Position numbers and translations under genes: made by a program
The notes under the pieces: generated by a model
What the model saw: the letters and a program-made list of their open reading frames with translations, nothing else
Told to the model about the DNA's origin: nothing
Databases searched by the model: none
Part shown: one piece after another, positions 12,933 to 54,174 of the stretch
Numbering within the stretch: the stretch's first letter is position 1
Layout of the letters: every line of letters starts with the position of its first letter
Source of the DNA: an uncultured Eubacteriales bacterium
GTDB taxonomy: Bacteria; Bacillota; Clostridia; Christensenellales; UBA1242
Direction: 5' to 3'
DNA length: 64,000 nt
Assembly (NCBI GenBank): GCA_948806215.1
Contig: CAQIDI010000003.1
Coordinates: 27,948 to 91,947, forward strand

Positions 12933-13117
12933 CAAAGATTAACAAATAATTTTTTTTATATTTTTTTTAAAACAACTTTGTTTTATCACAGCCCACAAAA
13001 TATAAACCATAATAAAAAAACTATTAAATAAAACCACACAACAATTTATTACAGTATATATACTATATAATATTATATATATAAATATATCATATAATAT
13101 AAAAAATAAATTAATGC

Positions 13118-13152
13118 AAAAAAAAGAAAGCAAAGTTTGCTTTCTTTTTTTT
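13118..13152 (-). terminator. Rho-independent terminator after giant gene 1
   Basis: A-run, GAAAGCAA-ACU-UUGCUUUC, then U8, lying 8 nt after the TAA stop at 13160..13162. The flanking A/T runs make it potentially bidirectional. Confidence 0.75.
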
Positions 13153-13159
13153 TAGCTAT

Positions 13160-16100
13160 TTATTCATAATAAGCATATAGGACTAAATCTGAAGTAATTT
13201 CTTCGTTATCAAAATTAAATATATAATCATCATAATTTCCTGTGAAACCAGGATCATACATAATTTTATACCAACCAACAAACGTTTTTCCTTCAGGTAT
13301 TGGAGGGGCTTGAAGCTCAGGATATTGAGTAATATCTATTTTATCTCCCTTCTTAACTTGGATAATTATTTCTGAAGGGAAAGGCATACCATCAATATCA
13401 ACAAAATTGACATTATAAACAGGTTTATCCCATAAAGCATAAATAATTAGATCGTTTCTAATTTTTGTTTGCTCAAAATCAAACAATACAAATTCTCCCT
13501 CTGAATTCCTAATATACCAATTATTAAATGTATTTTCGCTATCGCTTGGATCAACTGGGTTATCAGTTGGTCTACTTGCACTCTGACCAAATCCAACTTT
13601 TTGACTTATAAATGCATCGCCTGTTAATGAATTACCTAAGCTATCAACAAATGATACTGTATAAGTTGTGTCGGCAGGTTCCCAATAGCCATAAATAAAT
13701 ATATTTGACGTAATCTTAGTATTTTCAAAATCAAACAATAATTTATCATAATCAAAACCAGATAGACTATTATTCTTTCTTTCTGAATACCAACCACGGA
13801 ATAACATACTTGTATCCGCTGGATTTGCTATTTCACCAGGATTAACAACTGTGCTATTCCAATCAACAATAATCGGATTAGCCATACCGAAATCTTCTTC
13901 ATCAATTTTTGTACCATTTGCATCAACAAAAGTAACACTAAATGTTTTTATTTCAAAGTGTGCGTAAATATTAATATGATCCATTACAACAAATGCATCT
14001 TCATTTCCACTAAATATAAATTGTTCGTTTCCAGTTGCTGTTGTAAACCAACCAACAAAATTGTATCCTTCTTTTACTGGATCGGTTGGTCTTGAAACAT
14101 TTCCACCAGTATGAACAATCTGATTTGGAACATCGCTTAACAATATACCTTCTTCATCTACAAATCTAACTGTAAATGGAATAGTAACAAAATATTGATA
14201 AATAGATATATCCGCATTAACTGTTAATGGGAATGTTATTTTATATGTTGAATATGGTTTTGTGTCGCCTGAAGCTAAATATTGACTATAAGATTTAGTG
14301 TACCAGCCATCAAACTTATATGAAGGTTTAGTAGGCATTGTAGGCAAATCTAATTTTGCACCTTTACTTAATACTAAAACTCCATTAGTACCATAATTTT
14401 TATCGATAGTAACACCATCTTCTTTATAATATGTTACATTTACCACAGAAGAACTAAACACTGGGTATAAAATTAAATCAGAATTTATTGGAGTATTCCA
14501 ATTATACATTATAAAATTATCACCATCTTTTATTGCCCAATGTTGGAATGCCATACTAGGTTTAGTTGGCGAAGAAGCAGGTTCAGAAATAACTCCACCA
14601 AAATTTACTTTCTGAGTTAAGAAAACTCCTGCATCATCAGTACTATCATTCATAAATGTTACAACAGCTTGTGACCAGTGTGCATAAATAGTAATATTTG
14701 CGTTTATTTCATATTTCTTAAAGTCAAATTTAACAATTTTCCAAAAATCATTAAAACTATTAACTGGTTTACCGTCTGCATCTGTAATATCATTATTCTT
14801 ATTATTTTCATAATATTTATATGCTTCGCCATATGGCATTGTGTACCAACCACCAAAACTTAATCCTGGTTTTGTAGGATTATTTGGCTCTGGAACATTA
14901 TCTCCCTCATCTAAAGTTTGATCTGGAATATTACCAGTACCACCTTGTAAATCAAATTTTACAACATAAACACCGGCTCTTTGCCAAATTGCATATAAAT
15001 TTAAATCTCCAGTTACAGGTTTGCTAAAGTCATATTCAAGTCCATCAGAAGTTTTCCAACCAACTAATTCATATTTTGATCTATAAACATCGCTAATATA
15101 TACAGCTGTTCCACCTTCAACAACTCTTTTTGTTTGAACAGCATTAGGATTTACACTGTCAAAATATTTTACAGTATAAGATTTTACACCTGGAAATGGT
15201 TCAGAATCTGAACCTATATAATTAGTAGATCTCCCTAATGAAACGGTAAATCCATAATCGCCACCAATCCATAAAAATCCTCCTGAATAACACATATTTT
15301 GTAATGTTAAATCATCTTTGGTTGAAAGGTTATATCCACCCTTAAACATCGTAGCACTTTCATTATAAATTTCACCTTCACCATTACCATTAGGATTTGC
15401 GATACGACTATAGTATCTTACACCACATTGTTTTCCTGTAAATCCACCAACACTATCCGCATTACCTTTGCCATAATATTCGGTATACTGATCCACAAAT
15501 TTTGTACTTTTAGCATTATTACTCTGATTATTATTTTTATCAGTATATGGTTTAAGATAAAATCCATTATCTCTTGAATCCAAATTTCCAAAAATTGTTC
15601 CAAATTTAAATGGGCCACTAAAGCCATTATAATAACCAATTCTATATCCACTGTAAACATCACTAGCAGTTCTTGAACTATATCCATCATATGAATCCAT
15701 ATTATATGTTAAATACATTGAATCATAACTTGAAACATAGCCACCAAAACCTTTTGATAAATTATTGTTTAGTTCACCATAGGTTGCATAACCAACTATT
15801 CCGCCGCAACCATACGATAAATCATAACTTAATGCTCCAGCAACACTATTTGTATCAGCAGTATTACTATTTATTTTTGAATAACTAGAATAACCAACAA
15901 TTCCACCTACCGCATCGTTACCTACTACAATGAAATTATTGGTGTTACCAACAACTTCAGAACTATTTTCTGCATATCCAGTAATTCCACCAACATAGGA
16001 TGAAGAAACTTCTACTCTACCTGTATTTATACTATTATTTATACTAGAGTGATTAATTTTACCAACAATACCACCCACATAATTAGTACCTCTTATATTT

Positions 16101-19100
16101 TTTGCAGAGTTATTAGCACTTATTTTAGAATTATTAGTAGCATAACCAACTATTCCACCAATATTAGACCCAGCAAAAATATTTTGAGTGTTTGAGCAAT
16201 TCTTATTAGCTGTTGTTCCTTCATATCCAATAGTTGTATCATTAGCAACACCAACTATTCCACCAATATTTGTTCCAGTAGAACTAGAAACCCTGGATGG
16301 ATTTGTGAAGTTGCCATTTTTCGGTTCATAGTTGATATAAGCGGTATTTGTACATTTTGATATACGAGTATTATCAAATGTATTACCTATTAACCCACCA
16401 ATATTACTTGAATTATAAGATAGTATAAAGCCTTTTGATATACAACTTACAACCTCACTATTAAATAAATTAGCAGCTAAAGTTCCGAAATTATTATTAG
16501 GATAATAAATAGTTGTATCGTTACCAGCATTTATATTATTTAATTTAACATTATGGCCAGCTATTAATAATGCTCCGACACCATCATCAAATCTATTTGA
16601 TGTATTGCTACCATTATTAACAAAAGTAATATTTTGAATAGTATTGTTGTAAGCATAGCCTAAAATAGATTTTGCGCCATTATTACCACTAGCAACACTA
16701 ACACTTGTTCCAGTAACATCTACTTTAATAGGATAAGCTGTATTACTTGCTAAAGTTTTAAATCCATTACTTAAAGATAAAGTTTGTAAATAAATTGGTT
16801 TAATAACTTTAGAAGTTGAACTATTCATAAAGTTTGTTTTAATTAAGAAATTAACATAATTAAATTTTGCCTCAGTGTCAATTCTAAATTGTCCATTAAC
16901 TATAGATGGCGGTGTCATAGTTAAAGAAGTATCCTTATAACTATAATTTAAAGTTATATTGCTACCATAACTCCAATAAGGATTTTGTTCAATAATATTT
17001 TTGTATGTTACATTAATTTTATTCGAGTCATCACCATATGAAAAAGCAGTACTAGTATATGAATTTACAGAATTGAAAACTGCAGTATAAGGTTTAGCTA
17101 AGTTGATTGCACCTAATGGATTACCACTTGTTGTTACACATAAGCCAAACATACTCGCATCAAAACCATTAGGTAAACTATATGCAATTCCGTTAGTAGC
17201 AGCAGCTGTGTTCAATACATTATTAATATAAACATCTGTGTTTTCTATTTTAGCAACAATTCCTGCTGAATTATCTGCACTAACACTTCCATTATTAACA
17301 GCTAATGTAATATTACCATTAGTAGTTCCAGCAATACCGCCAACATATGCACTATTGTAACCAATAATCTTACCACTATTTGTAACAGAAGTTATTATTG
17401 ATTTGTTATCTGCCACATAACCAACAATACCACCAACATTATCATATCCAGAAACATTGCCAGTATTATTGCTGTTTAGATTACCTGAACAATCAACAGT
17501 AACACCATTAATAATTTTTCCAACTAAACCACCAACATTAATATTCCCTCTAACTGTTTTTATGTTATAGTCGTCTTTTATAATTACATTTCCATAAACT
17601 AATCCAGCTATACCACCAAAATTTTCTGGTTTATCAGTATCTTCTTTGTAGTTAGCAGAGTATTGAACAGCTGCTCTATTAGTGTTTGTCGAAATATTTA
17701 ATGGCTCTGTTTTATTATTTCTATAATATCCAACAATACCACCAACATTAGAATAACCACCAACAAATGTTTTATCTTCTTCTGGATGCTCTGGGTTTCC
17801 ATTAGCACAATTAATAATTGAAGTATCAACCGCATAACCAACTATTGTTCCAATATTTTCGCCACCATAAATTATACCTGATTCAACCGTTAAATTTTGA
17901 ATTGTTGCATTAACAGCATATCCAACAAGTCCCAACGAATCATTTGTTAACGCTTCTACACCAGTAATAGTATTAGTATCATCAATTGCATAAACCGAAG
18001 TTGACATAACGTTTTCTAAACGAATATCGCCATTTCCAATTAATATTCCCTTAAAAGCTTCATTATCGCTTAATGAAGAATAATAACCTATAGGAGTCCA
18101 AACCATACCACCAAAATTCATAGATCCATTAATTTTAATTGTCCAACCGTTAAAGTTATCATAATCATATCCTTGTTCATCCACACCTCCATTATTAACA
18201 ACATAAGCAATCCAAGCAAGTTGTTGAGGTCCGTAAACAGGTGTTTTTCTATCTATATTATTAACTGTTTCAACCATAAACTTATATGGGTGAGGGTTTA
18301 TAGTAATAGTTTTTGTAGATTTATTTATCGTACCAGGGGTAAATTTAACAACTGTAGTTCCATCTTTTATTTCACCAATGTCTTCATCTGGTCTTATATA
18401 ATTTTTAATCCAATATTCAACCTTTGTAGAGAATGTAGGATATTCTCCAGGCATTGTTCTTACCCAAGTACTAATCCAATCAAATCCATCAAGCATACCA
18501 GTTCCTAACTTAACTATTGTTATAACCTGATCACAGGTTCCACCAAACATAAAAGATACTACACTTGCTAACATTGCATTAGTATCATAATAATCCACAG
18601 CATAAACATTATTTGATTTAGTTTGTGTATTTTCATTACCCATAAATAATGAATTTTTACTATAAGTTGATAACATTGATGTCATAGAGGTTAATTTTTC
18701 TTTTCCTGATAACTCACCAATATAATAAACTTGGTCAGCAAAAACAGCATTATTAGTAGCACTTGTTCCACCGCAATAAGTATACGCTAAACCACTTGTG
18801 TTATTACCATAAACAGAAGAATTAACATAAACTTTATAAATAATCAATTTATTATTGCTTGTGTTAGCAAATGTTACTTTTCCAATCAAGCCACTAGCAG
18901 TTTGAGTAGCGTAAATATTACTATTTTCAACTCCAACCTTACTAGTAAAATATGTTTGTTGTGATTTATTTACATAAACAAATCCAGCAAGAGTTCCTGT
19001 AGAACTTATTCCATTATTTTTAGAAACTGAAATGAAGTTACTATCTTTAATAAGAATATCATTTGCAAATGTATCAGCAAAATTTTGACTCTCATCTATT

Positions 19101-35575: not shown

Positions 35576-35667
35576 AAAATTTGTCCTTGAAATTAATATA
35601 GTTTTTGCTTTTTTCATATTTATTATTTATATAATATATTATATATATAATAATACGGCCTACATAG

Positions 35668-35696
35668 AGTATAATGTTATGCGTTTTATATGTCAA
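35668..35696 (-). promoter_or_regulatory. sigmaA-type promoter of giant gene 1
   Basis: Minus strand reads TTGACA (35696..35691), a 17-nt spacer, then TATACT (35673..35668). Confidence 0.6.
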
Positions 35697-35951
35697 TTAA
35701 AAATATTTGTTTTAACATTTTTCGATAGTTTTTTTAAAATTAAAAATAAAAAAAATTATAACTAAATTTTATTAATTTTTATAATTTTTTATGGTTAAAT
35801 TAACCATATTTTTTTAATATTTTTTATTGTTTTTTTATGTTAAATTTACATAAATTTTATATAATTTTGTGAGTTTAATTTAATAATTATAAAGTAAATA
35901 TTTAATGTTTTTTTAACCGAAAAATGTAAAAATCTTGCAATAAATTGCAAC

Positions 35952-35981
35952 AAAAAAAGTGCTAAATTTAGCACTTTTTTT
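35952..35981 (-). terminator. Rho-independent terminator after giant gene 2
   Basis: A7-GUGCUAAAUUUAGCAC-U7, a perfect palindrome lying 4 nt after the TAA stop (35986..35988). Confidence 0.8.
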
Positions 35982-35985
35982 GTTG

Positions 35986-44900: not shown

Positions 44901-47900
44901 TGCCATTTTCGTTTAATGCTTTTATTTCTGCTTTTGTAACTAACAAGTTAGCAACATCAAGAGTAACATTTTTAACAACAGTATTATTTGATATTGTTGT
45001 AAATAATCCACAATTAATATCTGAGCCACCTGTGAAGCTTGAAGTATTAAAGTTATTAATTGTTATAATATGTCCATTTCCATCAAGGCTACTAAAGTTA
45101 GCAGCAAATGGAACATAATCGTATAGGTTGATATCGTTAACTAAAATAAAGTGACCAGAAGTTTCGTTTTGTAACGCCATAAATTCTGTTACATTCGAAA
45201 TTGGATTTGGATGATCGTATGTTGAGTTATCTTTAATTATTAAAGTAAAGAAAAATTCTTGTTCGTAAACTCTATAACCAATAACATCTCCAGAACAAAG
45301 TGTTGGAATACCATATTCGTTATAATAGTAGTTTATTCTAGCACCTATAACATCAGAAGAACTTACTCGTTTTGCATTAATTGCAAAATAATGTGTGTTG
45401 TTTAAATCGTTTAATGTTTTGTTTAAGAAGCTAAAGTTATCGTATTTATTACTAAAGTTTAATAACTCGTCGGTGTTACCATTTCTAATATACCAGTTAT
45501 TAATAAAATCGTTTGTGCCGTTAAAGTTTAATCTTCCCGATGCTTCTTGTGCAAAACTATTTATTTTTGTTGATATATCCGAATTACCATTATATTTTGC
45601 ATCAACTATCAAATTCAAAATTTGATTTGTTCCATTTAGCATTTCTAATGTGTTACCAGAAGCACTTTTAATTGCACCTTGCTGCCTAATGCTATTAACA
45701 ATATATTCAACAACATTCAATGTAACTGTGCTATCTTTTGTTTCTTTTATGCCATTAATAAATCTTGAAACTCTTGCAATAACTGTTATTGTGTCGCCTG
45801 CAATAGCATTATCTTTTGCCACAATATAATACTTATTTGTATTAACATCATAATCTAAAACAACTAACGAGTTGTTTTTGCCAGATGTAACATCAAATTC
45901 AACATCGCCTTCAAAGTTGTTGGCTTCAACAGTTAATTCAACTTTTCCGCCAATGTTAATTAACGAGTTATGCTCTCCGTTAACTGTTAGATTAATGCTT
46001 GGTAGCGGTTGAACTGTTAAAGTTATATCCTTAGAATAAACTTCTTGCTTTTGACCAGCAACATTTTTATAAGCTTTTGCTGTGAATACAATGTTTGAGT
46101 TTATTGGTGCATTTTGATCTAGCCCTATTTGAACATAATAGTTACCATTATAAATTATGCTATTATTTGCAAGCATACTTTGATTAACAAGTTTAACCCC
46201 AATAAAGCCCGGCAAATATTCGGTGTTACCCGATACCGATTGATAGTTAATTACATAACCATTTTCGCCACCCTGCATAACAGCTAACTTTTGATTAAAA
46301 CTAACATAATTTTTATATTGCTCTGTTGTTGTTAATTCAACATATTCGGCTTCGTTAAATTCTGGGAATAATTCTATTTTTAAAAGTCCCATTCTTGAAG
46401 GAACAATAAAGTTTGTTTCAACTTCTTGCGGATTAAATTCGGCATCTGATCCGCTACCTGAAGTTTCTGAGTTGGCATAGAATTTTAACTTAATATCACT
46501 AACCTTTTTAGGAACAATTTTTAAATTAAATTGTTTATTTAATTCGATATTAGTTGAAGGAGAAAAACTTAACAAATACGAAATATCGTTTAAGTTATAA
46601 GTAACTCCGCCAGTTCTATTTTTATATGCTTCGGTATTAAAGCTCAATCTTAAATTAAATATTGCTTTAACTTTTTGTAAAACACCATCTTTATAAATTT
46701 TTTCGGCTGTAATGTTATTTATTTCAACATTAATTAAACTTGAGTTAGTTCCGTTATTTTCGTCAAGTAGTGAAACACTGCCAACAGTTTGATTTGTTAC
46801 AGTATCTTTAATTAACATAATAACATCTTCGTTAACAACAACTTCTTCTCCTATTAAAGAAAAGTTGCTTGTTACAACACTAACATTTAGCTCAATGTTT
46901 TGTGATGGTTCGATTGTTGCATTTGTTTTATCGATTTCTAAGCTTTCGGCTTTAGGTTTTACATTAAATAAATATTCTTTAGTTAAATCATTAATTAAAA
47001 GACAATTATTAATGGTTACATCGCCATTTGAAGAAACCAAAGTTTCACCAAAATTTTGATTTGTTAGTTTTATAAATGGTGTTAATTCGTAACTAATAAT
47101 TCCTTCGCTAACACCTGTTAAATTAAACTCTGCTAAAGAACTAAATATGTAGGTTTTGCCATTTTCTAAAACTTGATCGTTTAATTTTGCACTTCCTGTG
47201 TTAGTAGAACTAACCACTAATTTAACTCCAACATTTGGATTAACAGTATAATAACCATTATATCCGCCAGCAATAGAAGTTTCTAAATCTTCCACGCCAG
47301 AATTAATAACTATTTCAACATCTCGGTTAATAGCAGTTGCGTAATAATTGGAAGTGTTGTCAATAAATTGAGTGTGTGTAATATCATCCATTAATAAATT
47401 TGCATCGTTAGTTAAGTTTTTAGATAGATACAAATTATAATCGCTAATACCACTAACAACTAAAATTGTTATTTCATCAAAAATAGAAACATCTAGTTTG
47501 CTTGAAACTCTTAATGTAACTTCGCCTTCGGCTAAGGTTTCTAGAACCAAATCGTTAAGAATTCTTACAACATTAACATTTGAACTTGTAATAATTAAAT
47601 CGCTAGCATAGTCTGCCTGTATACCAACGCTTTCTAAGTTTGGAAGGTCTAACATTATTTGAGCCATATTAACATATTGCGTGCTAAAGTCTTCTTCGCT
47701 TAACAACAATTTATATTTGTTAACATTTTTATAATTCTTACCAGAAATATATTGGTTATTAAATAGTACCACGTGGCTTTCGTCTTGCTTAATATAGCTT
47801 AAGTTACTAAAGCTTTGGTTAATATTTAAAATGTTTGTATTAATGTGAGTTGGTAAAACTTTAAATAAAATTTCACCACTATTGTGTTTATACTTAAATA

Positions 47901-50900
47901 ACACAGGGTATCCATTATTTAAAGTGTAAATATCTCCTAAATAATGTAACCAAGTGTAAGGTATATAGTCTGCAGCTTCGGTGTTAACCGACACAATATT
48001 AAACGCATCGGTTTCAGAGTTTATAAATGATTCGGTTTTAGTTAAATCAGTTTTTATTGTTTCTTCAACTGAACTTACGCTTAGTGAAGTTGAACTAACC
48101 GAAATTTCTTCAACTCTTGTTTCGGTTATAGATAAAGTTTTTGCCAATAATTTTGTGCTGTTTGTAAATGCAACTCCACCATAATTATTAGATCCAATAT
48201 AGCTTAGGCTAACATTTACCATATAACCAAATTCTTTATAAAATTCAAAATTGTTCTTTTTAACAATTGTTGTTGTTATTGTTCCTGCAGTTTGAATGCC
48301 TGTGTCTTCGTCCTCGGCATAATCTTCACTCTTAACAATATCGGTTGATATGTCTTCACGGTTTAACTCTAAACTATTAGTTTCTGTTCCAACAAATGCA
48401 CCAACATTATCGTAAACTGTGTAGGTAATAATTGTTTCAAGATAGTTAGTATCAATAACATTATCAGTAACTTCGGTTTGCACTCTTATTAACGAATTTC
48501 CTTCCCCGGATAAAATAATAGTGCCATCGTTTTCTACTAAACTACCAATTTTATATTCGATTGTTGTTCCAACGTGAGTTAAATTCAAATCTGATTTTGT
48601 TGTAACTTGTGTTGATTTTGGTTCGTTATTTTTAATATTTCCTGTTACGTAACTATTAACAATTGTTGTTTGTTCGTTTTTGTTAACTGCGTTTGTTGAT
48701 AAATTTGTTCCACCAACCAAACCACCAGCATAAACGTTTCCGGTTAATTTTTCAAAAGTTAAGTTAATATCTGCGCTAAAGTAGCTGTTAAATATTCCAT
48801 TGGCAAAAGTGCCATTAAACATATATTCATCAAATTCTTCAGAACCTTCTGATAATGTTTTTAAAGTTAAATCTAAATTAATATCGCCAGTTAAAATAAT
48901 TCCGTAATTTGCTTGTTGGTTGCTTATTTCAGAATTGTTCAAATATCCTACTAAACCACCAACATATTTATTTTCGATGTCGGCATTATTTTTTAAAGCA
49001 ATATTTCCATAGTATTGTTCGTTATTAATACCGCTGTTATTAAAGTAACTTCTAACATAGCTATAGTAAATGTTAATGTTGTTACCTTCGCCCACAAGTC
49101 CGCCAATATTTTTCTCGCCTATTAAACTTAATGTGTTAGCACCTGTTTGACCAGCATTAGCAAATTCAACAACTGCACTATCAATAATGCTATGTTCTAA
49201 AAATCCAACAAGACCACCAACATTTGTTTTGGCCATTAAATTAGGAGCAACTGTTATATCGTTTAAGTAAGTTGAGTTAGCATAACCAAACGCCCCACCA
49301 ACATTTGCAGGAAGCAACTTTTTATTAGCATCCATACTTGTTATTGTTGCACTAACATTTAGGTTATTATAGCTACTACCCATATCACGGGAATAAACGC
49401 TAACATCTGGTTGAACAGGATTTTCGTTTTCGTTTTTAAAATCGTAACCATTAACAACGGTTGCAGTTTTAGTTTCGCTAAAAGCAATTTCGGTTATGTT
49501 ATGTTTTGCATAAGTATAAACCGAACCAGCAATACCACCAATGTTAACATTTAAATCAGTTTCGCCAGAAGTTCCAATGTGGTTAATTACAACTTCGCTA
49601 TTAACCTTGCTAGAACTTGAACTGGTTGTGCTAATTGGTAAATAAGAAATAACACCTGTAACTTTTCTTGTTATATCAATATCGCCAGCAAGCACCATAT
49701 TGGTAATATCGTAATTTTCGTAAGTAAAGCTTTCGCCAACCATACCACCAATGTTTAAATTTTTTGCTTCGCTTGTAACATTTATTACACCAGCAATACG
49801 GCTATTTAAAATTGAGCCATAGTTGCGACCTGCAATAACACCAATATCAATTTTGTTTTTGTTATTAGCATTTAAAATTTTAATATCAAATTTAACGCCT
49901 TCAAAAATTAAATTTTCAATTTCGGCGGTTTCGGATAATTCTTCAAATAAACCAATGTTGTATTCTTTATCGGAAGAAACATCCATTTGTTTTGTTAATT
50001 CAAAATCGTTAATATAATTTTGACGAGAATAACTTATACCATTAATTGAGTAACTAAATAAGCCACTAAGTCCTCCGTTAAACTTTTTAAATGGAGGCAA
50101 AGTTTCGCCTATGCTTTCTAATGCACGCAAACTAATAGTATCAGTTAAAACATAATAGTAAGAGTTATTACCCAAGTTAATATCTCTACCAATTTCTAAA
50201 AATTCTTCTGCATTAGATATTTCAAAAGGATACTCTTTTGTTCCATTTGCAACTCTAATAGGAATGTGGTTAACCGTACTAGGAGTTGCAATTCCTGTTT
50301 CTTCGTTAAATGTATAGCTATCTTCCGAAGCAAAAGTTAAAATTGTTCTACCTGCGTTAACATAAGGTTTAACAACAATTTTATTCGAAATAATACGATT
50401 ATTGCTATCAACACCACTAACTATTTTAGCAACGCTAGTATCAGCAATAAATGCAATTAAGTTTTTGTTAAATGCATCGCTTGGTTCTACATCAAAAACA
50501 ATTTCTTTTCCTTCGCCATAAATTTCATTACCAGAAATTTGATAGTCACGAGAATCAAAATAAACGCCTTTTTCTTTATCTACACTTACAATAATGTTTT
50601 GCACTTTTTTAGCATACTTAACATTAACGTTAACATTTGATGCAATAATTGGCTTGTTATATTGTTGCAAAGTTGCAGAAACAACTGCTGTTAAATTGCC
50701 TTCTTTGTAAATTTGATTAAAGAAAAGATCTGGTGAAAATGAAATATCATTATCGTGAACTAAATCGAATTTAGATTTTATGCCATCGGTATTTGAGTTA
50801 GGATTATATGCATTTTTATCAATTTTTGCATAAACATAACATTTGTTATTAGCCTTATCAACTTCTAATTCAACAAAATCGCCAACAGTAAATTCAACAT

Positions 50901-53610
50901 CAATAATTTCGTTGCCGCGTTTTCCTTTATAGCTTTTAATAACTTGATCTTTGTTTAACAATGTGAAATTTATGTTTGGTTTTGTTGCTTCATCAGAAGA
51001 AACAGCATTTGTTGGATATAGGCTTAAGTTTAATTCTACTTTGCTTGCACCTAAGTTAAAATATCCAACCGAAGTGCTTTCGTAAATTGTAGAATCAATA
51101 GGATTTAATTGAATGGAAGTTATTGGTTTAATAATAGTTAGTTTTAAAACCTTTGTCATAGTTACAACATTACCTATATTATCGTAACCAGTTAAAACTA
51201 TTCTAACATCAACCGGAGCTTCGGTTTTAATGTTTCCTGTTTTAATAAAAGGAGTTCTAATTCCGTTAATATATTTATACTCAACCGAATAATAACTTCT
51301 ATCGGCAATAACAGTTACATTTTGGTTATAATTAATTGCTCGCAAAGTTTGATCGTTACCACTTGTTTGAACAACATAGTTATAAATGTTTAATCCAACA
51401 CTTGAATTAACTGCAACAGTAACAGCATTTTGAGTTGAGTAAGTTGCGCTTTTGTTGTAGATGGTTGTATCTTCAACTTCTTCACTAGGAATAATAGTTA
51501 TTTTACCGTTATCGTTAACACCGATAAAATATTCTGTTTTATTACTTGCATCGTAAATAGCACCACGGCTTTCTTCTGCTTCAAAAATTTCTAATCTAAC
51601 ACTTTGTTGGTTAATGCCTTGATCAACATAATCGTAAACAATAGGAACAAAAATTTCTACTCTAATGTTTTTTGTTATGTTATTTTTTGTTTTAATAACC
51701 AAATCAAAGTTAGATTCTACTGGTTGCAAAATTGGTGTTAAAACCAAACGGTTAACAAAACCATCTTCAACTTGTCTATATTCTAAAGTGAAATAATCAT
51801 TATCAAAAACATCAAAGTTAGGGTCGTATTCTCCGTTAACTGCAATAGCTCTAATGCTTGAAATAATTGTGTTTAAATTAACTTTTTGGTCACCAATAGT
51901 GCCAATAACAATTTCATAAAGTTCTCCTTCTTCAGGGTCGTTAATTCCCAAAGCCTTACCTGTTATTGCATTAATTTTTATTGGAGATGTTATTTGGAAC
52001 CCAACATCGGTTATTCCAGCAAGAGCAACAAGTGGAACTTCGGAAGTTACTGTGTAGGTTTTATAACCTTTAGTAAGCGATGTTGGTGCCATAGTGTAAG
52101 AATACTCTAACACTAACTTAGGGCAATTTTTTTGAGTTGGGTCGGTTATTAAAGTTTGCAAATCGCTAAAGCTATAGTTATGTTTTATGTAAAGAGTTGT
52201 TCCTCCGTTTAATTCGGTTGTTGGAGTTACTAGGCTATTGTTTCTTAAATAAATTTCAAAGCCATCTCTTCCATTAACCTGAGGTGCATTAATAACTTTT
52301 GCATTAATTTTATAACTTGTTGAGTTTGGATTAATTTGTAAGGTTAATGGTGTTCCAACAATGTTTCCACCATAAACGTTATAGATTGATGCAAAACTAT
52401 TGGTAACGTTTTCGCCATCTTCGCCATAAACATCAATTTCTTCACCAAATTCTTTAACAGTTACTCTAACTTTAATTGTTATTGTGAACAAGCCTTCAAA
52501 ACCAACACGATCGATGTTTATATCAAATGTTTCAACATTGTTTTCCATATTTTTAACTTGTTGATTAATTTGATAGGTTTTATATGGGTATGTATCGGCA
52601 ACTCCGTTATAGTTATATCTATCGTTTTCAGAAACTAACGATACTAAACCAATAACATCCGATTTTGCGTTATCTAAGCTGGTTGAAATTCTGTATTGTT
52701 TATCGGTTACAAATTCGGAACCAACTTGAATTTTTAAGTTACGAGAAAATATAAAAGGAATTGTTGAATTTTTTCCAAGAATAATATCATAAACATTTCC
52801 GTTAGAAGGAACTAATACTATTGGTTGCGAATTTAGGTCGGAATTAGTGCTTAAAACAACCTGCGACATATCAATAACATTAATTACATAAATCTTAACA
52901 GTTTGGGTTTTTATTTGATTGTTATAGTTACTAACAGCATAAACATTAACATATTGCAAACCATTGCTATCGTCAATTGGATAATTAGAAGCGTTTTTAG
53001 AAATCAACTTACCATTTTCAATTTTTGCATAACTTGTTTCGGTAACATTGCCTTGTTCGTTTGTTACAACTGCATTTGTTGAATCATCGATAAAAAACGA
53101 AACTTCGGTTTGGTTTGTTCCAACTGGCATAAAGGTTAAATATTTACCAAGTTCAACTTCGCCACCAAATTTAACAGCTTTGTTGCTAGTTACAAATCCA
53201 ATGCTTTTAACAGGAACATAAACAGTAACATTTATTTCTGCTCTAAGGTTGCCTTCTTGGGTGTTAACATAAATTATTCCCCTTCCTGGTTTTTGAGCTT
53301 TCAAATTAAATAATGTTTTATTGCCATCCTTTGAAACATCTTCAATACTAACAATATCGTTAACACCATTTGTGCCATACTGAGCAAAGGTAACATCGGT
53401 TGAAACACCTTTTCCTGCTCCCGATACGGTTGCCATTAAATATTCGGAATTAATTAATCCTTCTTGTGGCTCGCCTTCATCGGTTAAATATAATACTACA
53501 TCGGTTTTAGAAACAGATATAGAAAAATTTTTGTATGGGTCATTACACCCAAACAACAACATAACTGATCCTAAAAGAGCAATTAATAACGCACTAATTT
53601 TTTTTGCCAT
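35986..53610 (-). CDS. Giant surface lipoprotein 2 (5,874 aa): Ig-like arrays, GLUG-like beta-helix units and a unique non-repetitive C-terminal domain
   Basis: Uninterrupted ORF. AGGAG SD 7 nt upstream of the ATG at 53610. The signal peptide is MAKKISALLIALLGSVMLLFGC. The module order is collinear with giant 1. It has its own promoter and terminator. Confidence 0.9.
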   Translation of the reverse strand: MAKKISALLIALLGSVMLLFGCNDPYKNFSISVSKTDVVLYLTDEGEPQEGLINSEYLMATVSGAGKGVSTDVTFAQYGTNGVNDIVSIEDVSKDGNKTLFNLKAQKPGRGIIYVNTQEGNLRAEINVTVYVPVKSIGFVTSNKAVKFGGEVELGKYLTFMPVGTNQTEVSFFIDDSTNAVVTNEQGNVTETSYAKIENGKLISKNASNYPIDDSNGLQYVNVYAVSNYNNQIKTQTVKIYVINVIDMSQVVLSTNSDLNSQPIVLVPSNGNVYDIILGKNSTIPFIFSRNLKIQVGSEFVTDKQYRISTSLDNAKSDVIGLVSLVSENDRYNYNGVADTYPYKTYQINQQVKNMENNVETFDINIDRVGFEGLFTITIKVRVTVKEFGEEIDVYGEDGENVTNSFASIYNVYGGNIVGTPLTLQINPNSTSYKINAKVINAPQVNGRDGFEIYLRNNSLVTPTTELNGGTTLYIKHNYSFSDLQTLITDPTQKNCPKLVLEYSYTMAPTSLTKGYKTYTVTSEVPLVALAGITDVGFQITSPIKINAITGKALGINDPEEGELYEIVIGTIGDQKVNLNTIISSIRAIAVNGEYDPNFDVFDNDYFTLEYRQVEDGFVNRLVLTPILQPVESNFDLVIKTKNNITKNIRVEIFVPIVYDYVDQGINQQSVRLEIFEAEESRGAIYDASNKTEYFIGVNDNGKITIIPSEEVEDTTIYNKSATYSTQNAVTVAVNSSVGLNIYNYVVQTSGNDQTLRAINYNQNVTVIADRSYYSVEYKYINGIRTPFIKTGNIKTEAPVDVRIVLTGYDNIGNVVTMTKVLKLTIIKPITSIQLNPIDSTIYESTSVGYFNLGASKVELNLSLYPTNAVSSDEATKPNINFTLLNKDQVIKSYKGKRGNEIIDVEFTVGDFVELEVDKANNKCYVYAKIDKNAYNPNSNTDGIKSKFDLVHDNDISFSPDLFFNQIYKEGNLTAVVSATLQQYNKPIIASNVNVNVKYAKKVQNIIVSVDKEKGVYFDSRDYQISGNEIYGEGKEIVFDVEPSDAFNKNLIAFIADTSVAKIVSGVDSNNRIISNKIVVKPYVNAGRTILTFASEDSYTFNEETGIATPSTVNHIPIRVANGTKEYPFEISNAEEFLEIGRDINLGNNSYYYVLTDTISLRALESIGETLPPFKKFNGGLSGLFSYSINGISYSRQNYINDFELTKQMDVSSDKEYNIGLFEELSETAEIENLIFEGVKFDIKILNANNKNKIDIGVIAGRNYGSILNSRIAGVINVTSEAKNLNIGGMVGESFTYENYDITNMVLAGDIDITRKVTGVISYLPISTTSSSSSKVNSEVVINHIGTSGETDLNVNIGGIAGSVYTYAKHNITEIAFSETKTATVVNGYDFKNENENPVQPDVSVYSRDMGSSYNNLNVSATITSMDANKKLLPANVGGAFGYANSTYLNDITVAPNLMAKTNVGGLVGFLEHSIIDSAVVEFANAGQTGANTLSLIGEKNIGGLVGEGNNINIYYSYVRSYFNNSGINNEQYYGNIALKNNADIENKYVGGLVGYLNNSEISNQQANYGIILTGDINLDLTLKTLSEGSEEFDEYMFNGTFANGIFNSYFSADINLTFEKLTGNVYAGGLVGGTNLSTNAVNKNEQTTIVNSYVTGNIKNNEPKSTQVTTKSDLNLTHVGTTIEYKIGSLVENDGTIILSGEGNSLIRVQTEVTDNVIDTNYLETIITYTVYDNVGAFVGTETNSLELNREDISTDIVKSEDYAEDEDTGIQTAGTITTTIVKKNNFEFYKEFGYMVNVSLSYIGSNNYGGVAFTNSTKLLAKTLSITETRVEEISVSSTSLSVSSVEETIKTDLTKTESFINSETDAFNIVSVNTEAADYIPYTWLHYLGDIYTLNNGYPVLFKYKHNSGEILFKVLPTHINTNILNINQSFSNLSYIKQDESHVVLFNNQYISGKNYKNVNKYKLLLSEEDFSTQYVNMAQIMLDLPNLESVGIQADYASDLIITSSNVNVVRILNDLVLETLAEGEVTLRVSSKLDVSIFDEITILVVSGISDYNLYLSKNLTNDANLLMDDITHTQFIDNTSNYYATAINRDVEIVINSGVEDLETSIAGGYNGYYTVNPNVGVKLVVSSTNTGSAKLNDQVLENGKTYIFSSLAEFNLTGVSEGIISYELTPFIKLTNQNFGETLVSSNGDVTINNCLLINDLTKEYLFNVKPKAESLEIDKTNATIEPSQNIELNVSVVTSNFSLIGEEVVVNEDVIMLIKDTVTNQTVGSVSLLDENNGTNSSLINVEINNITAEKIYKDGVLQKVKAIFNLRLSFNTEAYKNRTGGVTYNLNDISYLLSFSPSTNIELNKQFNLKIVPKKVSDIKLKFYANSETSGSGSDAEFNPQEVETNFIVPSRMGLLKIELFPEFNEAEYVELTTTEQYKNYVSFNQKLAVMQGGENGYVINYQSVSGNTEYLPGFIGVKLVNQSMLANNSIIYNGNYYVQIGLDQNAPINSNIVFTAKAYKNVAGQKQEVYSKDITLTVQPLPSINLTVNGEHNSLINIGGKVELTVEANNFEGDVEFDVTSGKNNSLVVLDYDVNTNKYYIVAKDNAIAGDTITVIARVSRFINGIKETKDSTVTLNVVEYIVNSIRQQGAIKSASGNTLEMLNGTNQILNLIVDAKYNGNSDISTKINSFAQEASGRLNFNGTNDFINNWYIRNGNTDELLNFSNKYDNFSFLNKTLNDLNNTHYFAINAKRVSSSDVIGARINYYYNEYGIPTLCSGDVIGYRVYEQEFFFTLIIKDNSTYDHPNPISNVTEFMALQNETSGHFILVNDINLYDYVPFAANFSSLDGNGHIITINNFNTSSFTGGSDINCGLFTTISNNTVVKNVTLDVANLLVTKAEIKALNENGTTDADGNVTRNAKINLSNINSFNFGMLAGTNNGSLTNIKVINTKQTNANDSSSKYLFVYSTIGYISNGTLVDGNVGGIVGVNAGTISNSYIGLNDTYYSNQSNSEDLKALASEGSTRIQTYPFFIVGGKSIGAFVNKNAGIIANSYNLGVGLINSSTIFSGSKTAGFVVSNSSNGYIFNSMVEGIKTNSYRASSEIYLEATGNIGGFIYENSGRVENAYSNIAIKTNSGGSGGFVYDNLATGRVTNAYSTSPNAFNSKAHGQFTGINSKNKFNNAGELTSCFYLIYENEVANEDEPALAIRGKKVENSSSDEENKNPEGSKDNPFRYTGSFNGFSFATGTESNNIWTLGTDENFGPQLINIKKFNTFSHRTLTDTREENNTTIYDYIYDDDCQYGAMGTTNQVINPLLVNTAEEFVRFIINNSKTVPYNGDELYLFGDNEGVYYIRLINDLNFSEITLNNLIVDNKRISDIIFGGVLDGNGMSITGIKLTDLKQDSVHENFGLFSQVGLSDAQKEATGIGSEASQEKRINPSIQNVNITINGFAATQSVKVGAIAGSMYDTSLINVSLSAGENVEIVGRNLVGGFAGLIVNKPGIIINNVTTNNITVTASHRSNSVSEVSTLSGYGVALNNGNKIAFNSYNKDSRDSVEVLRNYSYAGSIAGVIDANNRPTEHSQGKTSVSIPEGDVKNHRSTPEENSISKITVQGGGFIAAEQAGGMFGYVGKNTHIKNSSYLLGVVTKDNGSSETVTPRVQQIRGYNYAGGIVGENYGMLEQVTVQHIADWQPDIDKDFVNNKTNKNVVNNLFGSEASVAIGGIAGFSDQSIIVDSFVKVGVINEKAKVAGGVIGIATRTNYLSHVYATGNVSASTVIGGLVGLYNKTGMHIIGTEDELKVTYVANNDSSSQTVEILPSAFRLSFDFAISANNWGEDVSAKLTENLQGYYDNGDGGYYNFSPRMPEIGNQAFSYGRLNIVKNEGTVTSVSKTETSVTDGDLNNITANNNLKYKYYIGSLVGKVEETTNADIKTNKIINNAALTTSVNAARKVSNVTTGFGKYYEFASVISTTLNSGKITKNNLRTPDGILDGFEDPGASNAEEFMNKFFNEALSALPTPEELNTGKQVVFDVVDYTNNIGNQFHLNSIFGQTGKNSNMFGGFAWDVVSLADIKPDSGSNVWMIDENLMPAYIIGIFSNFNEIKSVADLNTQIRIATSTKNQFYLLSENETADLADNKAYNFTKDSSSTYQSNENLFSNAFEGTLIGNPNAGKNPLIVVTQLNNLSNIFNSIASATIQNVDFKIIIPDGYTSQLSKRDAMQTSFGLLAKTVKGSVLSNINVEIVFQGVNTNTSQVINNKFRNSFNNIGLLFGSVEDSTLNNINVKLTFEKGNATASPNITTDISTNIEDVKPDATKNLNFGILVGSGLRSILSNINIMSSNGNNNENFISLNENQKSGIVNVGTLAGLLKDCSVQNINQVQPNGDYNINGEIKVNNTFEGGANFDGGYNIGGLVGNLDASTMVNANYAGRVVVGNANNNSVSTKLNVGGIVGYANSSNLNVVMNNYYNTLNNTSPELKIINKNINVYNATTNLQTTVGGVAGFINNSTITGNNNNNITSGNASNINATVNGGTLDVGGIIGYARNSNNRNGILRAYNQGYIRAFNNSTTASNLNVGGVAGTIIGGKYEDVFNIGDIAIKTNNNYSVGGLFGKTSLSTSEKEGMINNFISYGDIYVNASVPNTNKFIGGVVGSITSNAIRFSNGYTLTRVFNAKNANDDDLFISNNGTFATNEFINGIGHIQSFDVAMFDKVFYIHEFFPYTNTKNLLNGTTEIGKVIISAKSDSVKFGGISYGNLIENDSSSNLLLAYLQTGNNSGNFSRLETTIKIPYLQNVIPVNVVYREMEANNIASSGNKLNPEIISSASNQTSVRKDILANKYYIINESGTSTLNKNYEFSFNDNTFNGVLINKSRKGVPSVSGFSGKVNNGILANFYVKVTNTTNLTGALLKVNNGNIINVVTTGYLELTSAPISDNGTLAMFVQTNYSNIVASGSMIMLAYNGNIKANSYSGFVTQNISNSTKSGSAYIKDCYSTSSFINTSATSNFVLNAPSAGLAYSNDGVIETSYYAGSYNPEKVGKNALVYAGSGTLINCYYDYDALSTEKDSSKYNLSQTVSQPYDKARYVLTSDMLNSLFTDYALRTQTIVTSFENASVKYNYGYPTIINGIQINTLNNKNRFVIWHKGQINNLNKYDITGVNYDIVNNIDMNGVNKGISSNTIDIDFINPQDELKHNIYGNGYTISNLKIKSQSANRVGWFIKIEGKEISNLTIKNAEVTNTASDIGDRVGETYGVGIIAGFASGITLNDVKVIGTSTITATDSNNVGGLIGYAKNGRILLNDSTTNVMVTVDANNGLNVGGVVGFAYNTEITSAKYSGRVTAKKQVGGIAGYVASSAKLKNCTVVSSSSIIANNKNDISIATTIDSGIFKNNVSSKISIINNSIGSGSFAGGIVGRTSADSNALIEDCYPIGSSNGKVTISANSYSGGIVGGLFSTARINYTVQTNIQYLDVVNNNNGIGAIALGGMVGYMSDSTTLENAGVGRVSINNSTIAYSGINLNFAVGGIVGFQNGGTIRYADSKNNVIYGSRLVGGAIGYQNRGSLANCEVYNNNLYYKSNKEMDEYDGDGKNLYAGANSDYNSVLTSIKSNPYDSYLGCVTINSKRSLNGYFMGTNTDNRLDEQRGYFAVEYGGLDARASKIDHGGTFKLYFGFITGGTSSVASQSNIIVNNGCINGITDKGTLYAVNRFWDDWSGKNQWKWYLEKRIIQRTLNAYQNNGIFAFNNGTDDYNKFREYNKSVAEQNCSTHMLNVLTYIAAGYSIAYENGYEPISYIEAGANGTEGMAALFESQMKKCSVVPNKAEGLAILKNLYTNYAYQGMEYVSYQKISNVRSQEIHWRGGLWENMYPTDLNKHGKRFGEVSYTNI
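35989..36900 (-). other. Giant 2: C-terminal domain of about 300 aa and unknown function (approximate start)
   Basis: It starts after ...NNLYYKSNKEMDEYDG. The sequence is non-repetitive and rich in Trp, Tyr and Cys (RFWDDWSGKNQWKWYLEKR, NCSTHML, KKCSVVP, HWRGGLWENMYP). Giant 1 has no counterpart for its last roughly 220 aa. Confidence 0.45.
36900..45215 (-). other. Giant 2: run of about four to five GLUG-like beta-helix units (approximate bounds)
   Basis: N-cap-like modules lie near nt 45215 (NPISNVTEFMAL..ILVNDINLYDYVPF..LDGNGHIITINNF), 43700 (NPLLVNTAEEFVRF...GGVLDGNGMSITGIKL), 41340 and 38240 (..IYGNGYTISNLKI). Confidence 0.55.
45220..47860 (-). other. Giant 2: second Ig-like / beta-sandwich array (approximate bounds)
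   Basis: Examples are ITSSNVNVVRILNDLVLETLAEGEVTLRVSS and TLTVQPLPSINLTVNGEHNSLINIGGKVELTVEANNFEGDVEFDV. The second aligns with giant 1 TLSVKTTPTLNLHVNGRDSAAVARGTSLSFSADHEGIEGEVDFS. Confidence 0.45.
47870..50250 (-). other. Giant 2: first GLUG-like beta-helix unit (approximate bounds)
   Basis: Starts with YPFEISNAEEFLEIGRDINLGNNSYYYVLTDTISL. It contains IGGMVGE, IGGIAGS, VGGAFGY, VGGLVGF, IGGLVGE, VGGLVGY and AGGLVGG turns, and ends with W...NNGYPVLF. Confidence 0.55.
50260..53540 (-). other. Giant 2: N-terminal Ig-like (Big_2-like) domain array (approximate bounds)
   Basis: Examples are VKSIGFVTSNKAVKFGGEVELGKYLTFMPVGTNQTEVSFFIDD and ITSIQLNPIDSTIYE...LSLYPTNAV, plus ...FDVEPSDAFNKNLIAFIADTSVAKIV. 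Confidence 0.5.
53545..53610 (-). other. Lipoprotein signal peptide and lipobox of giant 2 (L-L-F-G-C, Cys codon 53547..53545)
   Basis: MAKKISALLIALLGSVMLLFG|CNDP. As in giant 1, the mature N-terminus begins C-N-D. Confidence 0.75.
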
Positions 53611-53723
53611 TTTGTAACTCCTAAATTTCTTCCATTAAACTATGTTAATTTATATATTATTTTGCGCAAGCGGGCGCGAATTATTATAAATATATATATA
53701 ATAATATAAGTCCGCTTAAAGTC

Positions 53724-53752
53724 ATTATATTTTTTTAATACATTAAAGTCAA
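53724..53752 (-). promoter_or_regulatory. sigmaA-type promoter of giant gene 2
   Basis: Minus strand reads TTGACT (53752..53747), a 17-nt spacer ending in A7, then TATAAT (53729..53724). Confidence 0.65.
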
Positions 53753-53800: not shown

Positions 53801-53835
53801 AAAAGCAAAAAAACATTCACGCCGAATGTTTTTTT
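53801..53835 (-). terminator. Rho-independent terminator of spoIIID (the stem includes the stop codon)
   Basis: Minus RNA is AAAAAAACAUUC-GGCGU-GAAUGUUUUUUU. The TGA stop (53819..53817) spans the loop/3'-arm junction. Confidence 0.75.
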
Positions 53836-54080: not shown

Positions 54081-54174
54081 ATAAATCGCTCCAAATAAAA
54101 GTTACTTATTGATATGACAAATCTCTACATTATATTACAAATTTAGCCAACTTAATTTTTAATGCTACAAAAAT

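Follow-up and report, generated by a model that had tools for sequence, protein, structure and literature searches.

Two giant genes between spoIIID and rpoB

We analysed a 64-kb stretch of DNA from an uncultured Eubacteriales bacterium (contig CAQIDI010000003.1 of assembly GCA_948806215.1), referred to here as the window, most of which is taken up by two giant genes on the minus strand that we name A (open reading frame, ORF, 13160-35617) and B (ORF 35986-53610). The A frame runs for 7,485 codons and the B frame for 5,874 codons, neither has an internal stop, and the other five frames of the same DNA carry 298 to 1225 stops each. At a stop probability of 0.086 per codon, the chance of frames this open is 10^-291 for A and 10^-228 for B; the guanine-cytosine (GC) content of the coding strand is 31%. 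Together the two genes span 40.4 kb, or 63% of the window. An initial annotation of this DNA had described two adjacent, co-oriented and stop-free ORFs placed between spoIIID and rpoBC; its coordinates and codon counts proved exact, and the gene order agrees with that location.

We found that the first ATG of A (35617) has no Shine-Dalgarno sequence, while AAGGA lies 8 nt upstream of Met15 (35575). Furthermore, the protein called on nine public contigs is exactly the product of 7,471 amino acids (aa) that is read when translation begins at Met15, and A orthologues begin at the residue equivalent to Met15. Since these three observations point to the same codon, Met15 is most likely the true start of A. 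Gene B has AGGAG 7 nt upstream of its ATG. The good Shine-Dalgarno sequence attributed to each gene in the initial annotation is therefore present for B, absent from the first ATG of A, and present for A only when translation is taken to begin at Met15.

Intactness and selection

All public sequences that carry A or B come from metagenome assemblies. The exact B sequence was found on 11 contigs (NCBI, ENA and Logan) and falls in a 90% cluster of 53 members; the exact A sequence, on its nine contigs, falls in a cluster of 54. The same full-length products recur across NCBI, ENA, Logan and JGI assemblies built by different pipelines. Eight independent contigs share the upstream gene order followed by the B gene, and the length called for B is 5,870 or 5,874 aa in six cases and 5,719 aa on L007; on L008 the gene is cut by the edge of a short contig. 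Over the first 9 kb of B, four non-identical assemblies are ungapped and 99.7-99.8% identical, and their ratio of nonsynonymous to synonymous substitution rates (dN/dS) is 0.06-0.08, within the range of the neighbouring genes. These data indicate that purifying selection on this part of B is strong. Full-length A variants are all 7,471 aa long and 99.1-99.99% identical, B variants are 5,868-5,896 aa long and 96.4-97.1% identical, and every indel between variants is in frame. The codon usage of A and B is the same as that of the neighbouring genes, marking both as native to the genome; codon usage did not separate expression levels.

No long direct or tandem DNA repeats occur within the 40 kb, and the only DNA that recurs within A and B is the short stretch encoding a GG[ILV]xG motif. 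Collapse or mis-joining of the assembly across repeats, which had been raised as a worry about "repetitive modules", is thus of no concern, as the genes are non-repetitive at the DNA level. Recurrence in independent assemblies, low dN/dS and in-frame indels together indicate that A and B are intact, functional native genes, as first claimed, and not decayed remnants.

A predicted N-terminal lipid anchor

Both proteins match the PROSITE lipoprotein signal PS51257, which calls for a positively charged n-region, an uncharged h-region, the pattern [LIVMFWSTAG](2)-[LIVMFYSTAGCQ]-[AGS]-C and a Cys at residues 15-35. Read from Met15, A matches at LFSALSLLAGC (lipobox LLAGC, Cys25), and B matches at LLGSVMLLFGC (lipobox LLFGC, Cys22), with two or three Lys or Arg among the first seven residues of each. 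An L/F-x-[GAS]-C lipobox is present in every collinear member of the family, and a D/G-x-Y-K/E-N/D-h-K-L motif (D-P-Y-K-N-h-K-L type) comes after it. Apart from the signal peptide neither A nor B has any hydrophobic segment, and an LPXTG motif and a C-terminal hydrophobic tail are likewise missing. We conclude that A and B are predicted type-II (SPII) lipoproteins, and the lipobox signal peptide that the initial annotation assigned to both is borne out by its conservation across the family. A further protein in the window (550 aa, 60079-61731, minus strand), which matches no Pfam family above threshold, carries the canonical lipobox MLAGC, suggesting that the lipoprotein pathway is in use in this organism.

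Domain architecture of the chains

A and B are collinear paralogues: about 4,000 residues align at 22% identity (E 1e-145), with 28% identity over the first 1,180 aa. In Pfam and NCBIfam scans the only matches were GLUG motifs, which exceed the Pfam gathering cut-off in 4 of 18 segments of A and B, and the C-terminal Flg_new array of A. The GG[ILV]xG motifs occur in clusters, five of them in A and four in B, and the modules so defined make up at least 22-23% of each chain (Table 1). A clear cap precedes the first module of each protein, for example "PFEITNTNDLLKI...YFVLADNISV...WQPIG...PFTGYLSG", and some of the other modules have looser cap-like motifs ahead of them. A profile built from the nine modules has a sole match in the PDB, the N-terminal region of the S. 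pneumoniae IgA1 protease (E 0.006). The AlphaFold2 (AF2) model of the last module of B is confident over about 170 residues only (predicted local distance difference test, pLDDT, 70-82) and shows the rhythm of a short-strand solenoid. Its best Foldseek match is again an IgA1 protease (7uvl_P, E 6e-4), followed by the G. haemolysans enzyme and BACOVA_03286, and tailspikes and PL6 lyases match more weakly. Since sequence and fold evidence agree, we take the GG[ILV]xG modules to be probable GLUG-type right-handed beta-helices. The catalytic part of the IgA1 proteases is missing, as neither A nor B contains HExxH; a Peptidase_M26 match was likewise absent at E 0.5.

The scans of A and B against Pfam gave no SLH or CWB2 domain, those against Pfam and NCBIfam gave no glycoside-hydrolase or lyase family even at E 0.5, and single-sequence phmmer of the whole proteins gave no match in the PDB. 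No characterised adhesin family absorbed either protein in Pfam, NCBIfam or PDB sequence searches, and on this point the novelty proposed in the initial annotation stands.

Immunoglobulin (Ig)-like domains are detectable near the N-termini. Positions 105-195 of the N-terminal A/B profile match many multi-Big_2 proteins, and hhalign places Big_2-like domains at residues 97-200, 805-873 and 1013-1065 of B and 114-221 and 2052-2096 of A. The fold matches of the AF2 model of the first domain of B are tandem Ig proteins (Big_2-CBM56, SbsB, Sap, SbsC, titin, ICAM and intimin); B residues 135-520 and the B tip yielded no usable AF2 model. An iterated Big_2 profile combined with hhalign windows recovered just two or three Big_2-like domains per protein. 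The inter-helix regions had also been considered as demonstrable arrays of Ig domains, a reading withdrawn because so few are detectable; that these regions are Ig-like is a guess from their composition.

A polymorphic C-terminal tip in B

Within the species B is near-invariant apart from a few hot spots. About 180 differences separate the window allele of B from the common allele, 146 of them (81%) in the last ~330 residues, and identity drops abruptly from ~100% to ~67% after "...KEMDEYDGDGKNL". Both tip alleles are present on several contigs. The tip comprises about 310 residues and is conserved in the B-type orthologues P0062 and P0066, with which it shares the motifs IEYGGxD, LYFGFITGG and AGYSxAY. 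Since the N-terminus is the predicted anchor, the polymorphic tip would be the membrane-distal end of B. We found no relative of the tip in Pfam, the PDB, phage genomes or an indexed protein collection; the word search of that collection missed even the giants' own clusters, which are present there, so that its lack of hits for the tip, the tip alignment and the 1,500-aa N-terminus is weak evidence. Metagenome contig scans by terminator DNA pattern and by the B C-terminal protein also gave no match.

Two further within-species variants were observed. The B variant P0013 (5,896 aa) has an in-frame 26-aa tandem duplication (IVKNEGTVTSVSKTETSVTDGDLNNI twice) near residue 3874 (window ~41990). In A, the sole hot spot lies at residues 5600-5700 (window ~18500-18800), with 22 variable columns and a 4-column indel in 100 aa, against 0-6 variable columns elsewhere.

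Distribution and evolution of the family

The contig index had no exact match to the RpoB of the window. Relatives were found by an RpoB-anchored scan of GTDB species representatives. The RpoB proteins of the nearest are 88-90% identical to that of the window (94% for one 636-residue fragment). These relatives are uncultured metagenome-assembled genomes recovered from the guts of humans (Hadza, Nepal, Brazil), goats, yaks and deer and from further gut samples, and their records bear the names "Clostridia bacterium", "Clostridiales bacterium" or "Christensenella sp. UBA...". The longest contig carrying A/B proteins is 1.03 Mb. A genome scan with the N-terminal A/B alignment matched patterns and confirmed no relative. 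When 1.84 billion representatives were searched exhaustively with HMMER for matches to the N-terminal profile, 85 hits were returned. About 10 of these are collinear, and the full-length collinear matches are all giants. The A-type matches (7,417, 7,525 and 7,469 aa) are 65%, 34.5% and 33.8% identical to the window protein over their full length, and the B-type matches (5,875 and 6,038 aa) 54% and 35.7%. Since A-type and B-type orthologues occur across these species, with length kept and sequence not, both paralogues predate them, and A and B appear to be anciently duplicated genes.

The position of the giants is also conserved. Among 33 related species with RpoB at least 75% identical and 10 kb upstream of rpoB at hand, 26 have a single open frame that fills the entire 10 kb and runs off the locus. 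These frames are Asn- and Ser-rich, contain 16-57 GG-motifs and end 300-930 bp before rpoB, and their C-termini differ widely between species. None of the loci with RpoB identity of 62% or less has a giant frame. The A-type orthologue P0064 maps to the upstream frame of one of these species (L010; 83% identity over 3,186 residues), in which RpoB is 90% identical to that of the window and the A-type protein only ~34%. Our data suggest that the family is lineage-restricted and previously undescribed.

Some more distant proteins came up beside the family. P0072 and P0074, hits of the N-terminal profile in other organisms, are large surface proteins with Big_2 and LRR_5 domains whose N-terminal part matches the ribosomal protein L7/L12 in its C-terminal domain (109 bits for P0072), an unusual case of fusion or co-option. 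Directly upstream of rpoB in a distant clade (RpoB 60% identical) lies a lipobox protein of 740 aa that has five Big_2 domains (L044:6408-8627); it was considered as a specific relative of the giants and rejected (hhalign probability 1%).

Control regions and neighbouring genes

The upstream regions of A and B align in register, with the -35 box, the -10 box and a 16-nt element (TATTATTATATATATA) in common, which indicates that the duplication that gave rise to A and B took in the control region. In both leaders the element follows the -10 box at a distance of 13-18 nt, and it has three matches in the window where 0.08 would be expected; it may act as a regulatory or leader element common to the two genes. 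The third match, a one-mismatch copy at 13068-13083 on the plus strand, lies in the A-rpoB spacer. The near-consensus sigma-A promoter claimed for each gene corresponds to sites with 11 of 12 matches, which are suggestive only, since the spacers are extremely AT-rich and promoter-like sites in them are no more numerous than in shuffled sequence. The claim of a strong intrinsic terminator fared better, as a hairpin with a T run follows both genes and such hairpins are commoner than in shuffled sequence. The AT-rich B leader also contains a GC-rich hairpin (TTCGCGCCCGCTTGCGCAAA on the coding strand, 53661-53680) with no counterpart in the A leader, and a 45-bp AT-rich tandem repeat (2.5 copies, 73% matches, 35759-35868) lies in the B-A spacer upstream of the A promoter site. 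An Rfam scan of the window found no known RNA family.

Table 1. Features of genes A and B (aa, amino-acid residues; all coordinates are window positions)
Feature	Coordinates	Strand	Remarks
Gene A	13160-35575	-	7,471-aa (~0.82 MDa) predicted lipoprotein from probable start Met15; first ATG of ORF at 35617
Gene B	35986-53610	-	5,874-aa (~0.65 MDa) predicted lipoprotein; stop-free ORF
B promoter-like site, sigma-70 type	53724-53752	-	TTGACT-17-TATAAT; 11/12 matches; in register with that of A
A promoter-like site, sigma-70 type	35668-35696	-	TTGACA-17-TATACT; 11/12 matches; in register with that of B
16-nt TATTATTATATATATA element, B 5' leader	53691-53706	-	identical copy in A leader
16-nt TATTATTATATATATA element, A 5' leader	35640-35655	-	identical copy in B leader
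B predicted signal peptide, MAKKISALLIALLGSVMLLFG before lipobox C	53545-53610	-	PS51257 match; conserved in orthologues
A predicted signal peptide, MKNVRKSLVLITLILFSALSLLAG before lipobox C	35501-35575	-	PS51257 match; conserved in orthologues
B first all-beta domain, aa 22-133		-	ahead of Big_2-like domain; AF2 residues 1-112 pLDDT 70-85
B Big_2-like Ig domain, aa 97-204	52999-53322	-	Big_2 profile matches; hhalign 99% probability
A Big_2-like Ig domain, aa 112-221 (7,485-aa numbering)	34955-35284	-	hhalign 100% probability; local profile
B predicted beta-helix module 1, aa 1115-1720	48451-50268	-	8 GLUG-like coils; GLUG 21.7 bits; cap motif PFEISNAEEFLEI
B predicted beta-helix module, aa 3482-3785	42256-43167	-	6 coils
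B predicted beta-helix module, aa 4400-4655	39646-40413	-	7 coils
B predicted beta-helix module, aa 5272-5555	36946-37797	-	8 coils; GLUG 27.2 bits; AF2 solenoid segment
A predicted beta-helix module 1, aa 955-1720	30458-32755	-	8 coils; GLUG 25.8 bits; cap PFEITNTNDLLKI...WQPIG...PFTGYLSG
A predicted beta-helix module, aa 3697-3971	23705-24529	-	6 coils
A predicted beta-helix module, aa 4401-4920	20858-22417	-	10 coils
A predicted beta-helix module, aa 5896-6105	17303-17932	-	6 coils
A predicted beta-helix module, aa 6402-6737	15407-16414	-	8 coils; GLUG 35.4 bits
A C-terminal array, ~7 Flg_new (Listeria-Bacteroides / InlB B-repeat)	13163-15190	-	PF09479, 173 bits; TIGR02543; internal repeats
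B orphan C-terminal tip domain, aa ~5565-5874	35989-36918	-	two alleles, ~67% identity, sharp boundary
Intrinsic-terminator-like hairpin after B	35948-35985	-	17-pair stem + T run; shuffle mean 0.1 such sites
Intrinsic-terminator-like hairpin after A	13118-13152	-	16-pair stem + T run

In the order of transcription the window contains mfd, the 550-aa lipobox protein, an LPG-synthase-like membrane protein, a polysaccharide deacetylase (on the opposite strand), two unknowns, an M23 peptidase, acpP, spoIIID, B, A, rpoB, rpoC, two small ORFs, rpsL, rpsG and fusA. The genes near B include SpoIIID (PF12116), a SpoIIQ-like membrane M23 peptidase and a DUF1779-like protein. No ORF lies between B and A or between A and rpoB. 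The 64-kb window contains no sortase, secretion-accessory or mobile-element gene, and here too the initial annotation, which had reported no type I secretion, accessory Sec, sortase, LPXTG, SLH or mobile-element genes, was correct.

Several features of the surrounding genes were also recorded. SpoIIID (53817-54119, minus strand) is 100 aa long in most public assemblies (213 contigs) against 87 aa from the first ATG in the window, and its true start is probably a non-ATG codon 13 codons upstream. The two small ORFs between rpoC and rpsL (4380-4658 and 4809-5084, minus strand) encode 92 and 91 aa; the 92-aa product has a sub-threshold match to a HicB-like antitoxin (23.5 bits, cut-off 27) and the 91-aa product has no match. 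The genes rplJ-rplL do not precede rpoB here (12677-13159), nor were they seen at nine related loci without a giant ORF (among L010-L075), where, judged by eye from N-terminal sequences, rpoB is preceded by pgk/tpi-like or ABC-transporter ATPase-like genes.

Lipid-anchored fibres as the probable function

We propose that A and B are N-terminally lipid-anchored, adhesin-like fibrillar surface proteins of a low-GC gut lineage of Clostridia, a reading to which we assign a probability of roughly 0.6. Each gene would be transcribed from its own sigma-A-type promoter, and each product would be exported by Sec, diacylglycerol-modified by Lgt at the lipobox Cys and cut by LspA at the signal peptide, which is the established pathway for PS51257-type signals. 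The N-terminus would then be kept in the outer leaflet of the cytoplasmic membrane, while the Ig-like domains, the four or five GLUG beta-helix modules and the long unassigned, probably beta-rich stretches would project beyond the wall as a fibre made of a single polypeptide. On a rough estimate such fibres would extend to ~190 nm (B) and ~245 nm (A), or roughly 0.2 um, if regions outside the helices span 3.8 nm per 95 residues, each 25-residue coil spans 0.48 nm and the unannotated stretches are Ig-like. The working ends would be the membrane-distal C-termini, the Flg_new array of A and the allelic orphan tip of B, and the role would most likely be attachment to, or recognition of, ligands on host or microbial surfaces. 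In fibrillar adhesins, Big_2 and Flg_new are recognised as domains of the stalk and beta-solenoids as the regions that bind (PMC9210967). Furthermore, a conserved scaffold and length combined with rapid sequence turnover and an allelic distal domain is what would be expected of an organelle of recognition or attachment, on which diversifying pressure would come from ligands, phages or host immunity.

Several observations weigh against this proposal. More than 70% of each chain has no assignable family, fold or internal repeat, the AF2 models are poor overall (mean pLDDT 46 and 42) and usable in short segments only, and no known adhesive domain is among the Pfam matches of A and B. Unlike classical stalks, the chains show little tandem repetition that can be recognised outside the Flg_new array and the beta-helix coils. 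Promoter-like sites show no excess over shuffled spacers. The right-handed beta-helix is also the fold of many polysaccharide lyases, hydrolases and tailspikes, so that an enzymatic role is conceivable.

The two proteins might instead serve as a structural coat or spacer, a dense lipid-anchored layer of two fixed fibre lengths that replaces an S-layer or capsule, shields the small cell or keeps it at a set distance from its environment, and binds ligands only secondarily. The preservation of orthologue length while sequence identity falls to 34-36%, the strong purifying selection within the species, and a position shared by 26 of 33 species, suggestive of a core component of the envelope, would all suit such a layer, and the fold matches of the first Ig-like domain include the S-layer proteins SbsB, SbsC and Sap. 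These Ig-fold matches are generic, however, with titin, ICAM and intimin scoring equally; the Pfam scans revealed no SLH or CWB2 and no other domain for anchoring or lattice formation, and a polymorphic distal tip suits recognition better than packing. We consider a coat possible, if unlikely, and the phrase "dominant surface structure" or "S-layer substitute" in the initial annotation is speculation.

The beta-helices could also be enzymes, in which case A and B would be surface-tethered, multi-catalytic glycan degraders whose modules, each a lyase or hydrolase, forage on mucin or dietary glycans. The gut habitat given in the record titles is compatible with this, and PL6 alginate lyases, GH87, GH110, polygalacturonases and tailspike depolymerases are listed in the fold search below the IgA1-protease matches. 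Those listings nonetheless have E values of at least 0.3 and TM-scores of at most 0.25 on a low-confidence model, by sequence and by fold alike the best match is the GLUG domain of IgA1 proteases, which is not catalytic, and the family scans described above returned no such enzyme, which makes catalysis improbable.

Contact-dependent delivery of an effector, with B as a polymorphic-toxin-like stalk and its variable C-terminal domain as the effector, would explain the sharp boundary of the polymorphism within the species and the highly variable C-termini of the giant ORFs of related species. Yet the alleles are homologues of each other (~67% identity), and orthologues retain the domain, with no swap for unrelated toxins. 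An immunity-sized ORF is lacking both in the gap from the B stop to A and behind A. No toxin, pre-toxin or cleavage motif came to light, and Pfam, the PDB and phage genomes gave no match; we regard this function as very unlikely. We hold much the same view of sporulation-linked envelope or spore-surface fibres that would decorate the spore or the forespore interface. SpoIIID, the membrane M23 peptidase and the DUF1779-like protein are indeed neighbours, but the promoter-like sites resemble the sigma-A consensus and not that of sigma-E or sigma-K, and the adjacency seen throughout the clade is with rpoB (in other species only the rpoB side was examined). An assembly chimera or non-functional open frames can be given negligible weight in view of the open-frame probabilities (10^-228 to 10^-291), a dN/dS of 0.06-0.08, the same full-length products in dozens of independent assemblies from different pipelines, the lack of mis-join-prone repeats and the in-frame indels. 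On feature tests we thus rejected an assembly artefact, an IgA protease, a sortase-anchored adhesin, an S-layer protein with a known anchor and a classical polymorphic toxin.

A and B belong to bacteria that, going by record titles, are widespread uncultured members of human, ruminant and bird gut communities. Should the genome be not much larger than ~1.03 Mb, the ~40 kb spent on two proteins would be a few percent of it, and giant genes kept so consistently at such cost are probably central to the contact of these cells with their surroundings. The polymorphic B tip is a candidate determinant of specificity, and roughly 9,000 residues of A and B are without an assignable fold. Possible uses include strain markers, handles for enriching or labelling this uncultured lineage, and candidates for host or phage recognition. 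A bolder proposal, which we think rather improbable, is that A and B form a lineage-defining, two-length, lipid-anchored megadalton fibre system that the small-genome clade needs for its way of life, possibly for obligate attachment to a partner microbe or host mucus. The allelic tip of B would then set partner specificity, and the orphan tip and the dark chain would include new folds. If true, the pair would be a new envelope organisation for monoderm bacteria and not just a further adhesin.

Comparison with known systems

The view of the initial annotation that the pair is not a described system holds in part. Tandem giants as such are known, since Apilactobacillus kunkeei carries Giant1-5, five consecutive genes for extracellular proteins of 3,000-8,000 aa that occupy 6% of a 1.5-Mb genome (PMC12863079), but the family, its anchoring and its architecture are new. 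Like Giant1-5, A and B are consecutive co-oriented giant genes that would take up several percent of a small Firmicutes genome, and they share with them Asn-richness, beta-solenoid and Ig-like parts, fast divergence and intragenic recombination; the adhesion role of the Giants is itself inferred (PMC12863079). The Giants have Sec signals for signal peptidase I, distal N-terminal beta-solenoids, long imperfect repeats of alpha-helical or beta type, and DUF5776/SH3b-like domains at the C-terminus that bind the wall. In contrast, A and B have a predicted SPII lipobox, a proximal N-terminus, several GLUG modules along the chain and almost no tandem repetition, and lack DUF5776. A sequence relationship between the two sets was not detected.

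Giant1-5 are thus the nearest analogue in genome organisation, and the nearest at the domain level is the GLUG beta-helix of the M26 IgA1 proteases (ZmpA family; S. pneumoniae 6XJA/6XJB/7UVL, G. haemolysans 7UVK) and BACOVA_03286 (3N6Z), with the same GG[ILV]xG coil. Unlike the M26 IgA1 proteases, A and B lack HExxH, the Peptidase_M26 domain and LPXTG and have four or five modules each instead of one. Chlamydial polymorphic membrane proteins offer a further parallel, as a short glycine motif (GGA[ILV] there) marks the coils of a beta-helical surface adhesin (PMC11166332, PMC10715098); those proteins are diderm autotransporters of ~1,000-1,800 aa, unrelated in sequence to A and B.

A and B resemble the fibrillar adhesins of Gram-positive bacteria (PMC9210967, bioRxiv 10.1101/2020.12.07.414375) in being long single polypeptides with an anchor, Big_2 or Flg_new domains, beta-solenoids and fast evolution. 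The stalk features present are the seven Flg_new repeats of A and the two or three Big_2-like domains per protein, most of the chain being without internal repeat, and the distal features are the orphan polymorphic tip of B and the Flg_new repeats of A. The usual fibrillar adhesin has a C-terminal LPXTG or wall-binding anchor and an N-terminal adhesive domain, whereas the predicted polarity of A and B is reversed, with an N-terminal lipid anchor, a C-terminal tip and a mostly non-repetitive, unannotated stalk. Giant proteins of Clostridia from gut metagenomes share the habitat, the Listeria-Bacteroides (Flg_new) repeats and a suggested role in adhesion (bioRxiv 10.1101/2023.11.21.568195). Their description sets them apart, as they are 10,000-30,000 aa long and repeat-dominated, and lipoproteins are not mentioned (bioRxiv 10.1101/2023.11.21.568195).

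Other surface systems are more remote. Sortase-anchored proteins, serine-rich repeat proteins and accessory Sec substrates are set apart from A and B, which lack LPxTG and a hydrophobic segment at the C-terminus and have no accessory genes beside them in the window. A and B differ from Firmicutes S-layer proteins in having no SLH or CWB2, the sole link being the generic Ig-fold similarity of one domain to SbsB, Sap and SbsC, and from polymorphic toxins and contact-dependent inhibition systems in their homologous alleles, the lack of a downstream immunity ORF and the lack of a toxin family match. For the anchor, a parallel is offered by the Mollicutes, small-genome, low-GC relatives of the Firmicutes in which N-terminal lipoboxes anchor fast-evolving surface adhesion proteins and variable lipoproteins. 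To our knowledge these lipoproteins are typically smaller by a factor of ten or more and have neither GLUG nor Flg_new domains.

The open-access literature searched contained nothing relevant on giant bacterial lipoproteins or on this lineage together with giant proteins. While tandem giant surface-protein genes were already known as a phenomenon, the features that appear to be new in A and B are the predicted N-terminal lipid anchor with reversed polarity, the largely non-repetitive dark chain, the orphan allelic tip and the conserved position next to rpoB. The family would thereby extend the giant surface proteins of bacteria to a form held by a lipid at its N-terminus and reaching outward with its C-terminus.

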